A stretch of 64,000 nt of DNA, taken from positions 2,604,001-2,668,000 of the forward strand of contig NW_026889796.1 in assembly GCF_033153115.1 (NCBI RefSeq), in the 5' to 3' direction. The stretch comes from Saccostrea echinata. Lineage: Eukaryota. The first letter of the stretch is position 1; each line of letters starts with the position of its first letter. Of this stretch, positions 1,764-57,307 are shown one piece after another. The translations under genes and the position numbers were made by a program. The notes under the pieces were generated by a model. That model was not told where the DNA came from. It ran no database searches and was given only the letters and a program-made list of their open reading frames with translations.

Positions 1764-2283
1764 GTGTGAAAAATTCATGCATAAAATTTGTCTTTACTTA
1801 CTCTGTTTTCTATTAATAGTATTTTAAAAGATATAGTCTTACATTCTATTAAAAGTTTGCTGCACCATTATCTGAACAAAACGTCATATAAATACATGTA
1901 TATATATACATGTATCAAATTTTTGATTAGTTATGACTTTGCAGAATGAATATGTAAATGATGAAATGATCCTCACATTACATCTAGTATATACTATGGT
2001 TTCATGAATTGGGATCAAATTTTGTGATTTTGGCAAAAAAATACAATTTTGTTGACCAATCACATCTTCTCGGGTCTTTGCAGCAAGCTCGCAAAAACAC
2101 CTCGAATGTATAACCGGACGTTTTAAAACAAGTTATACGAAAATATATCCTATATATCAAAGTACTGAATAGACAGTTGTGTGTCCCTCTTTAGTATATT
2201 TTAGGTAATATTTTTACATTCATTGAAATTAAGCTCCAGAATTTACAGATAAGAGGTCGCCCTACATTTGAAGGGGGTTATCA

Positions 2284-2623
2284 TGTATAGCGGGAGAGGA
2301 GAAAAATGCAACGGACCAGATCGGGATTCGAATCCGGGCCCCCTGAATCTCCAGTCGTGCTCTACCACCTGAGCTATCTGGCCACTGGCGATCGGACCTG
2401 TCTGACCTGTTCCTCCCTCCTTAAAGGTCTTCGGCCCCACTCAGGCTCTTTCCTGGCATGTCTTGCACCTGTCAATTCCATGGCACGGCACCAACGGGAG
2501 AGGAGAAAATGCGACGGACCAGACCGGGATTCGAACCCGGACCCCCTGAATCTCCAGTCAGGTGCTCCACCAACGCTACGGTCCTACCTGGCCACCGGCG
2601 ATCGAACCCGTCTGACTGTCATA
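2284..2623 (-). mobile_element. Non-autonomous LTR mini-retrotransposon (TRIM) with tRNA-like LTRs (Helenus-like)
   Basis: Minus-strand order: LTR ~2623-2495; PBS TGGTGCCGTG 2493-2484; ~60 bp internal region; PPT AAGGAGGGAGGAA 2422-2410; LTR ~2409-2284 ending in CA. Each LTR holds a tRNA-like cassette (2593-2516 and 2383-2313). No clear TSD. Confidence 0.7.
2313..2383 (-). pseudogene. tRNA-like sequence (A-box/B-box) inside the TRIM LTR; not a functional tRNA gene
   Basis: Reverse complement GGCCAGATAGCTCAGGTGGTAGAGCACGACTGGAGATTCAGGGGGCCCGGATTCGAATCCCGATCTGGTCC; the anticodon stem carries a deletion. Confidence 0.7.
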
Positions 2624-3520
2624 TTGTAAATTTTGAATTTACCGTGTGACAGTAAATTCAAAATTTACAACATGACATGACCGCCACACATATGCAGGCC
2701 TTCGTGCCCCCCCCCCCCCCCCCCAGGTCAGAAAGGCCCGAGAGGTAGCGATTAATTGTTCGCTGAAATGTAACTTCGTGAAAATCAGTAATTCGTCCTA
2801 TTAATGTGTAGTTCGATCCTTGATGGTTTTCCGGGTCAACCACAAATTAAAACAACGAAAATTGGTTCAGCGAAAAATAATGAAACCACGAGCATTTGCA
2901 AAAAGGTAAATTGTCGAAAGACAGTAAACTTGCTTTATTGGGTATGGGTCCATAGTGGTGTTGGATATACTAGTACGTACTACTAAAAAATAAAATTAAA
3001 TTAAAATTCACTCGTAATCTCACATTTGGTAAAGAGCTAAATAATGGCCATTTGAAGAAGCTTATGCATTGTTGTATGGGTCAAAAGATCAAGTAAATCA
3101 CATTTTACAATGTAATGGATACCACATAAATTCAGTCCTTTGCTAGAGATGTTGTGTTGCTTTGCTAGAAACTTCGCTAATTTGGTTAAGGTCTCAAGGT
3201 CATATAAAATGTTTCTTCGAAAGAGTGCTGACACAATTTAAGAGTCCATTCTGGAGCCCCAAGGGCAAGTAAATGTAAAAGTAAATGGAAACATTGCTGG
3301 CAAAGATACTTGGATTAGTACGTATTGAATGTATATTCATTGCTAGAAAATCTGTGCTTTTGAAACATTTCAACTCAGAAAGTTTTGACTCTCCTTACCA
3401 TGCCGTTATAACACTGTAACAAAGGTAGGGTACGGGTATTCCTAATGACACTCAAACTAATGTATTCGAGGATTTGAAATTGGCAGGGGCGATAAATGAA
3501 AACAGGAAAACAAAAACAAC

Positions 3521-56866: not shown

Positions 56867-57307
56867 TGTAACAGGAAAGGAAAAAATGCGACTGACCAGA
56901 ACTTGATTGAACCCGGGGCCCCGAATTTCCAGTCAGATGTTCTGGCAGGTCTTTTAACCTGTCACTTCCAGGACATGGAAGGGCACCAAATGCAAACAGA
57001 AAAGGAGAAAAATGCGATGGACCAGACCCGGATTTGAACCCAGACCCCCTGAATCTCTAGTCAGGTGCTCTACCAACTGAGCTATCTGGCCATGGGGAAC
57101 GAACCAGTCTGATCGCAGCATTCCTCCCTCCCTAAAGGTCTTTGGCCCCAAAGACATCAACCCAAGGTCTTCCCTGGAAGGTCTTTCACTGTCACTTCTA
57201 GGGTATGGCACGGCACCAAATGTAACAGGAGAGGAGAAAATGCGACGTACCAAACCGCAGTTCGAACCCCGGTCTGGTCCGTCGCATTTTTCTCCTCTCC
57301 TGTTACA
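56867..57307 (-). mobile_element. Tandem, partly inverted array of tRNA-LTR TRIMs (Helenus-like)
   Basis: Minus strand: LTR end TGTTACA (to 57221), TT, PBS TGGTGCCGTG (57218-57209), internal region, PPT AGGGAGGGAGGAA (57133-57121), full LTR TG(57120)...CA(56991), degenerate PBS TGGTGCCC, then a truncated LTR to 56867. 57221-57307 is a foldback. Confidence 0.75.
57019..57091 (-). pseudogene. 73-nt tRNA-like cloverleaf inside the TRIM LTR (nominal AGA anticodon)
   Basis: Reverse complement GGCCAGA TA GCTC AGTTGGTA GAGC A CCTGA CTAGAGAT TCAGG GGGT CTGGG TTCAAAT CCGGG TCTGGTC C. Acceptor and D stems are intact, the anticodon loop is 8 nt, and the T stem has a mismatch. Confidence 0.7.

Follow-up and report, generated by a model that had tools for sequence, protein, structure and literature searches.

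Helenus elements are TRIMs with tRNA-like LTRs; in animals they are flanked by target duplications (TSDs) of 4 bp, 51 families have been described from bivalves, and tRNA-His is among their primers (Kojima 2024, PMC10886601). One of these families, Helenus-1_SaGl, is listed in the supplement of that paper with an LTR of 129 bp, an internal region of 103 bp, a full length of 361 bp and a TSD of 4 bp. The same paper links His-primed bivalve Helenus elements to Gypsy-39_CGi through the PBS only and calls the basis of the dependence unknown; its accessible text names no partner for the genome of Helenus-1_SaGl.

We analysed a window of 64,000 nucleotides of Saccostrea echinata DNA (contig NW_026889796.1, positions 2,604,001 to 2,668,000). 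A first-pass annotation had described at 2284..2623 a complete mini-retrotransposon, read on the minus strand as LTR, PBS, short internal stretch, PPT and second LTR, both LTRs being built around a tRNA-like cassette. We delimited the following features, given in positions of the window.

2689..2692, minus strand: 5' copy of the TSD, TATG on the minus strand, one mismatch against 2282-2285
2494..2688, minus strand: 5' LTR with TG start (family length 130 bp), nested insertion inside, terminal bases gone
2617..2677, no strand: nested palindromic insertion of 61 bp, TG..CA ends, 29-bp arms, GTCA duplication
2516..2593, minus strand: tRNA-like cassette of the 5' LTR, intact box B at 2537-2527, then T4 at 2509-2506
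2484..2493, minus strand: PBS, TGGTGCCGTG, a 10-nt complement of the mature tRNA-His(GTG) end with its CCA
2423..2483, minus strand: internal region, non-coding, with small deletions relative to other family copies
2410..2422, minus strand: PPT, a purine tract adjoining the second repeat
2286..2409, minus strand: 3' LTR, first bases missing, terminal CA mutated to TA
2313..2383, minus strand: tRNA-like cassette in the 3' LTR, scored as tRNA by Rfam at 35.4 bits, then T5 at 2306-2302
2282..2285, minus strand: 3' copy of the TSD, CATG on the minus strand
56867..57307, minus strand: second, older copy of the family, flanks TGTT/TATT, inverted U5 end

The proposed order on the minus strand held: the direct repeats align over 123 bases (E 3.6e-30, compared against the window), the tRNA-His PBS lies at 2493-2484 between the first repeat and the short internal region, and the purine tract at 2422-2410 abuts the second LTR as described. 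Each LTR has its tRNA-like cassette: that of the second repeat was recognized as tRNA by Rfam RF00005 (cut-off 29 bits); that of the first did not reach E 0.01 against the same model. The bounds and the word complete had to be given up. In comparison with other copies, the family LTR start was found at 2688-2678, and the copy extends over 2286-2688, its 5' end lying at 2688 rather than 2623 and its 3' end at 2286. Both inner LTR ends are lost, box A of the 5' LTR is interrupted by a 5-base insertion, and the same LTR is split by the 61-bp insertion. The terminal dinucleotides are TG..TA, the TSD carries one mismatch (TATG/CATG), and no strict box A was left in either LTR in a motif scan. Minus the nested insertion, the copy measures 338 bp. 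Its identity to 15 other copies is 90.6-93.4%, against 94-97% among those 15 themselves; its two LTRs are 88% identical, compared to 92-100% in the 15. The window copy is old, decayed and not complete. It is likely inactive, because the ends and the promoter motif needed are lost and a later insertion has been taken. An 18-base inverted match at 2724-2741 was dismissed as chance (E 0.74).

To place the family, we compared copy L002 by eye with the published Helenus-1_SaGl consensus. Identical bases amounted to 126 of 130 in the LTR and 99 of 103 in the internal region (~96-97%), above the 75% clustering threshold of PMC10886601. L002 departs from the consensus by three substitutions and a single T within the LTR and by four substitutions in the internal region, seven substitutions altogether, with T5 rather than T4 behind the cassette. 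Family copies had LTRs of 130 bp (129 bp in Helenus-1_SaGl), internal regions of 95-103 bp (103) and full lengths of 355-363 bp (361); the 4-bp TSD, the His PBS and the PPT were identical in kind, and the PBS is the one listed for Helenus-1_SaGl. The window copy differs from it by its decay and by the insertion nested inside. Judged from these comparisons, the window element belongs, as a decayed copy, to Helenus-1_SaGl, a family already known. The first-pass annotation was right in seeing a TRIM of the Helenus kind, as the cassettes within LTRs, the TRIM layout and the 4-bp TSD testify; its suggestion that the family may be new fails, the family having been described in 2024, and as a family it offers nothing new.

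A search of the genome (923 Mb) gave 1191 candidates, the best 40 of which were scored and 30 loci fetched. After removal of six same-locus and three same-flank duplicates, 21 insertions remained, with both ends located in 17 and not locatable in four. The family is non-coding, with LTRs of 125-131 bp among 15 copies that measure 355-363 bp; the PBS lies directly 3' of the 5' LTR and the PPT directly 5' of the 3' LTR, as defines a TRIM. TG was present at 17/17 and CA at 16/17 located insertions, counts that are partly by construction because the ends were located with motifs containing those letters. A 4-bp TSD was exact at 13 of the 17 and had at most one mismatch at 16; one copy showed no TSD, and none showed a TSD of 3, 5 or 6 bp. 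In a control, non-self pairings of flanks matched in 2 of 272 cases.

Because the first set consisted of top matches, further insertions were selected with nothing but the LTR start as criterion. The exact LTR-start pattern occurred at 147 genomic sites (the reversed pattern at none), of which 30 were fetched; 21 were new, the end was located in 19, and the TSD was exact in 10 of these. Five were solo LTRs: two with an exact TSD (L159 and L162), two with one mismatch and one with its end lost. Three-LTR tandem arrays, in which LTR and internal region repeat, were common. At L005 and L011/L013, identical flanks and target duplication were seen on two contigs, with two LTRs in the former and three in the latter; this difference reflects array expansion or contraction after insertion.

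The tRNA-His PBS was corroborated by the genome itself, being the complement of the 3' end of its tRNA-His(GTG) plus a CCA that is not encoded. There are at least eight tRNA-His(GTG) genes (four were submitted to ARAGORN and all four called His), and 0/8 encode CCA. Since the PBS requires the CCA that the genes do not encode, the primer is mature tRNA-His. In retroviruses, plus-strand synthesis copies the primer tRNA as far as the modified A58. Exact 18-nt complements of tRNA-His occurred at 92 genomic sites, and Helenus-type sequence was found at 9 of the 30 examined; 18-nt complements at such sites are as expected from plus-strand copying of the primer up to modified A58. Longer pieces were also found: antisense tRNA joined to Helenus accounted for 6 of 14 genomic tRNA-His matches, representing four distinct events. 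In L009/L056, a whole antisense tRNA-His lies between two inverted LTR ends (L009:1188-1259); in L065 and L068/L069 (two events), tRNA read-throughs are located behind LTR and PBS; in L066/L067, the 5' part of a true tRNA-His is joined at the T-loop to the LTR U5, in place of part of the cassette. L027 and L117 carry shorter read-throughs past the 18-nt stop. The G at -1 of the tRNA copy in L009/L056 (A in the genes) would fit copying of mature tRNA, but it was rejected as evidence, as a fold-back junction explains it equally. Priming by tRNA-His and insertion by a Gypsy-type integrase are both well supported.

The first-pass annotation had also proposed mobilization in trans by a tRNA-His-primed LTR retrotransposon, for which the LTR-type ends, the TSD and the solo LTRs speak, and had suggested a search for autonomous elements with the same PBS and termini; this search yielded a candidate. 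One family held 7 of the 30 examined 18-nt His PBS sites. Ten His-PBS regions were fetched, three of them (L121-L123) from that family, picked for open ORFs. In these three, gag is 446 aa and pol 1307-1310 aa with YxDD, no further sense ORF of at least 200 aa was present, and the LTRs of 1190-1248 bp are 99.2-99.8% alike within pairs and flanked by 4-bp TSDs (exact in 2/3). In L122, the one copy scanned with Pfam, pol shows protease, RT, RNase H and integrase in Gypsy order. The remaining seven regions had pol broken or absent. L126, also His-primed, has LTRs of 547 bp that are 99.6% alike and retains gag and protease, with its RT cut short; it is likely a young, internally deleted Gypsy. As compared at the PBS region alone, the 18-nt His PBS of L121-L123 is identical to that of Gypsy-39_CGi, which is likewise His-primed (PMC10886601).

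The PPT and LTR start of L121 were identical to those of Helenus at 20 of 21 bases, and the LTR end is also common to both; beyond PBS, PPT and LTR ends, no longer stretch in common was found between Helenus and the Gypsy body. The exact PPT+TGT motif of the L121-L123 family occurred 32 times in the genome. Among 30 occurrences examined, 22 were the family's own, one was a chimera, three were Helenus by BLAST and one Helenus-like by eye, and three were from another family. The latter three (L181, L189 and L193) represent another LTR family with an identical PPT+TGT motif.

At 13 junctions of the Gypsy LTR end with a His PBS, the sequence ran into the Gypsy body in 12 and into Helenus in one, L199 (G000:C30:7688552-7689331; L199:6552-7331). 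This chimera consists of the 3' half of the Gypsy LTR followed by the Helenus internal region, PPT and LTR; its Gypsy part is ~540 bp with a best match of 90%, its left end is cut, and it is without target duplication. Such a structure is the expected product if Gypsy plus-strand strong-stop DNA were transferred to the Helenus minus strand at the PBS, i.e., of co-packaging. As a separate observation, the PPT of L199 carries the Gypsy-type G, a single base present at 0/43 other family junctions.

On this evidence, the enzymes of Helenus are probably supplied by the Gypsy family of L121-L123 via co-packaging. Alternatively, the partner may be another His-primed Gypsy family or several, with L199 formed by deletion between neighbouring insertions via the 10-base PBS. 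Several families are indeed represented among the 30 examined of the 92 exact PBS sites, the Gypsy link is made through short motifs and one chimera (1/13 junctions, truncated and without TSD), and another family has the PPT motif at 3/30 sites. However, open gag and pol were found only in the L121-L123 family among the ten fetched regions, that family owns 22/30 of the examined exact PPT+TGT sites, the PPTs read in two other Gypsy families are unlike that of Helenus, and L199 keeps the Gypsy spacer up to the PBS, as second-strand transfer would. We consider this alternative rather unlikely. What is new here is modest: a His-primed Gypsy with open gag and pol that shares PBS, PPT and LTR ends with Helenus, and the chimera L199.

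How the RNA template is made was approached through the LTR itself. With strict box A and box B motifs, box A was found in 56, box B in 47 and both in 37 of 72 whole LTRs; family LTRs scored 62-63 bits as tRNA by Rfam. A T5 run lies behind the cassette and ahead of the PBS in 57 of 62 LTR contexts. As both LTRs are alike, a genome-length Pol III RNA would need to read through the first T5 and stop at the second. The predicted transcript of one family copy folds with a z of -2.5, a value taken as uninformative. In RNA-seq contigs from four runs, family pieces cover LTR, PBS and internal region (e.g., 168 bases at a depth of 71); they show neither strand nor transcript ends, are possibly of host-intron or DNA origin, and speak neither for nor against Pol III. 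From the motifs, Pol III probably starts transcription at the 5' LTR cassette, with the first T5 acting as a leaky terminator; short RNAs should then be abundant and long ones scarce.

The same TRIM might instead obtain its genome-length RNA from host transcripts that Pol II extends through the element, with the cassette either a SINE relic or of use only as R homology. In favour of such an origin, a T5 in 57/62 LTRs would end most Pol III transcripts before the PBS, some of the family pieces in ordinary RNA-seq contigs exceed the element in length, and the role of Pol III was also inferred, without experimental test, in the accessible text of PMC10886601. Against it, box A and box B persist in 56 and 47 of the 72 LTRs and are conserved across Helenus (PMC10886601), and a U3 of only ~30 bp would leave too little room for an ordinary Pol II promoter. 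We regard Pol II read-through as unlikely.

Two tandem tRNA-derived SINE heads or two tRNA pseudogenes, for which the Rfam scores of the cassettes and an ARAGORN call in the second window copy might be cited, have a negligible chance of being correct: the TSD and terminus counts refute them, the ends are fixed as TG..CA with a constant 4-bp TSD, PBS and PPT stand at set places, solo LTRs and LTR-internal arrays occur, the anticodon loop is non-standard, and the SINE hallmarks named by the first-pass annotation as refuting its LTR-element reading (one head only, a variable 3' tail and long, variable TSDs) were absent among family copies.

For intact family members, the following cycle is proposed. 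Initiating at the 5' LTR cassette, Pol III would at times read past its T5 and stop at the T5 of the 3' LTR, in a layout with U3 of ~30 bp, the cassette as R and U5 of ~20 bp. Mature tRNA-His primes at the PBS, a step supported by the 18-nt complements and antisense read-throughs as its fossils, and an LTR-type integrase inserts the DNA, as the pattern of TG..CA ends, 4-bp duplications and solo LTRs shows. The enzymes would be provided by the L121-L123 Gypsy family through co-packaging of Helenus RNA with it. The window copy has lost needed ends and a promoter motif and took a later insertion. Taken jointly, the best explanation of the locus is, with high confidence, a decayed Helenus-1_SaGl copy whose intact relatives likely rely on Pol III for transcription and likely on a His-primed Gypsy of the same genome for copying and insertion.

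The second window copy belongs to a class of rearranged insertions. It reads, from 57307 to 56867, inverted U5 end (a fold-back at the T-arm), PBS, internal region, PPT, LTR, PBS, partial internal region and partial LTR. An inverted U5 start was found in ten insertions (L003, L016, L024, L119, L120, L165-L168 and this copy), with an exact 4-bp duplication in six, one mismatch in three and an unreadable one in the remaining insertion; they show that cDNA carrying U5 on both sides was used by an integrase. The pivot lies in the T-arm of the cassette in 8 of the 10, but six of these eight were found with patterns built for the pivot, so a T-arm hotspot is suggested rather than measured. The two-U5 copies likely arose when nascent DNA folded back on the T-arm hairpin. 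L166 is an inverted dimer of the whole element with a T-arm pivot and an exact 4-bp duplication. The main text of PMC10886601, as far as accessible, does not speak of copies that are inverted or palindromic, and for animal Helenus we found in the open literature neither partner chimeras, nor fold-back products, nor later work beyond that paper.

Within the second copy lies a false ARAGORN tRNA call (57019-57091), its anticodon read as '???'. Helenus LTRs are thus miscalled as tRNA genes, in one case within this window. Elsewhere in the window, an AT-rich tandem repeat occupies 1482-1763 (68-bp unit, four copies).

These side results address the question left by PMC10886601, which autonomous element moves animal Helenus and how the dependence persists; the Gypsy family, the chimera and the fold-back products together make a concrete, testable partner pair. 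A wider reading would combine them into a record, kept in this genome, of how an animal Helenus replicates: L199 names a recently active His-primed Gypsy as the partner by co-packaging, the T-arm is a hotspot of RT fold-back that gives rise to two-U5 elements, and captured tRNA recombines into the cassette. We hold the case for this combination to be evenly balanced. If it is true, primer-tRNA capture would be a route by which tRNA cassettes enter LTRs without SINE insertion.

The insertion nested in the 5' LTR, whose GTCA duplication lies at 2678-2681 and 2613-2616, belongs to a different repeat family spread across the genome; its search gave 801 candidates, of which 40 were scored. Among 40 distinct loci, a 4-bp duplication was exact at 17 and had at most one mismatch at 29. 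The family comprises 61-bp palindromes and longer head-to-head forms with TG..CA ends; it is abundant (L032-L055, L070-L088), and head-to-head forms of 102-129 bp often lie within one duplication. A solo LTR of a PBS-bearing element was considered and rejected, since the 19 matches to its end plus TGG were mostly target duplications or chance. Ginger DNA transposons have TGTNR termini and target CCGG/CCGT (Ginger1) or RTATAY (Ginger2) (PMC2836005). The TGTCA ends of the palindrome family agree with TGTNR, but neither CCGG nor CCGT is seen among its 4-bp duplications, most of which do not resemble TATA either.

Among other described systems, Helenus-2C_CGi and other His-primed bivalve Helenus elements (PMC10886601) have the layout and the His PBS in common with the family studied here, and their cassette and PPT are related, whereas the LTR and internal sequences are less similar. 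Helenus-2-type LTRs are present in this genome too and form chimeras with the Helenus-1-type family (L024): by eye, L024/L153, L028 and L147 join a Helenus-2-type U3 to a Helenus-1-type cassette and U5, which, as read from these sequences, is recombination between two His-primed families. Cassandra and Ajax are TRIMs whose LTRs likewise harbour a cassette of Pol III type, and they form tandem arrays (PMC7215508), but their cassette is derived from 5S rather than tRNA, and hosts and primers differ. biv-TRIM (Satovic 2019, PMC6934838) is another TRIM from bivalves and also occurs as solo repeats and in tandem; with terminal repeats of 202-218 bp, a PPT of 7 bp and no canonical PBS, it is a different family.
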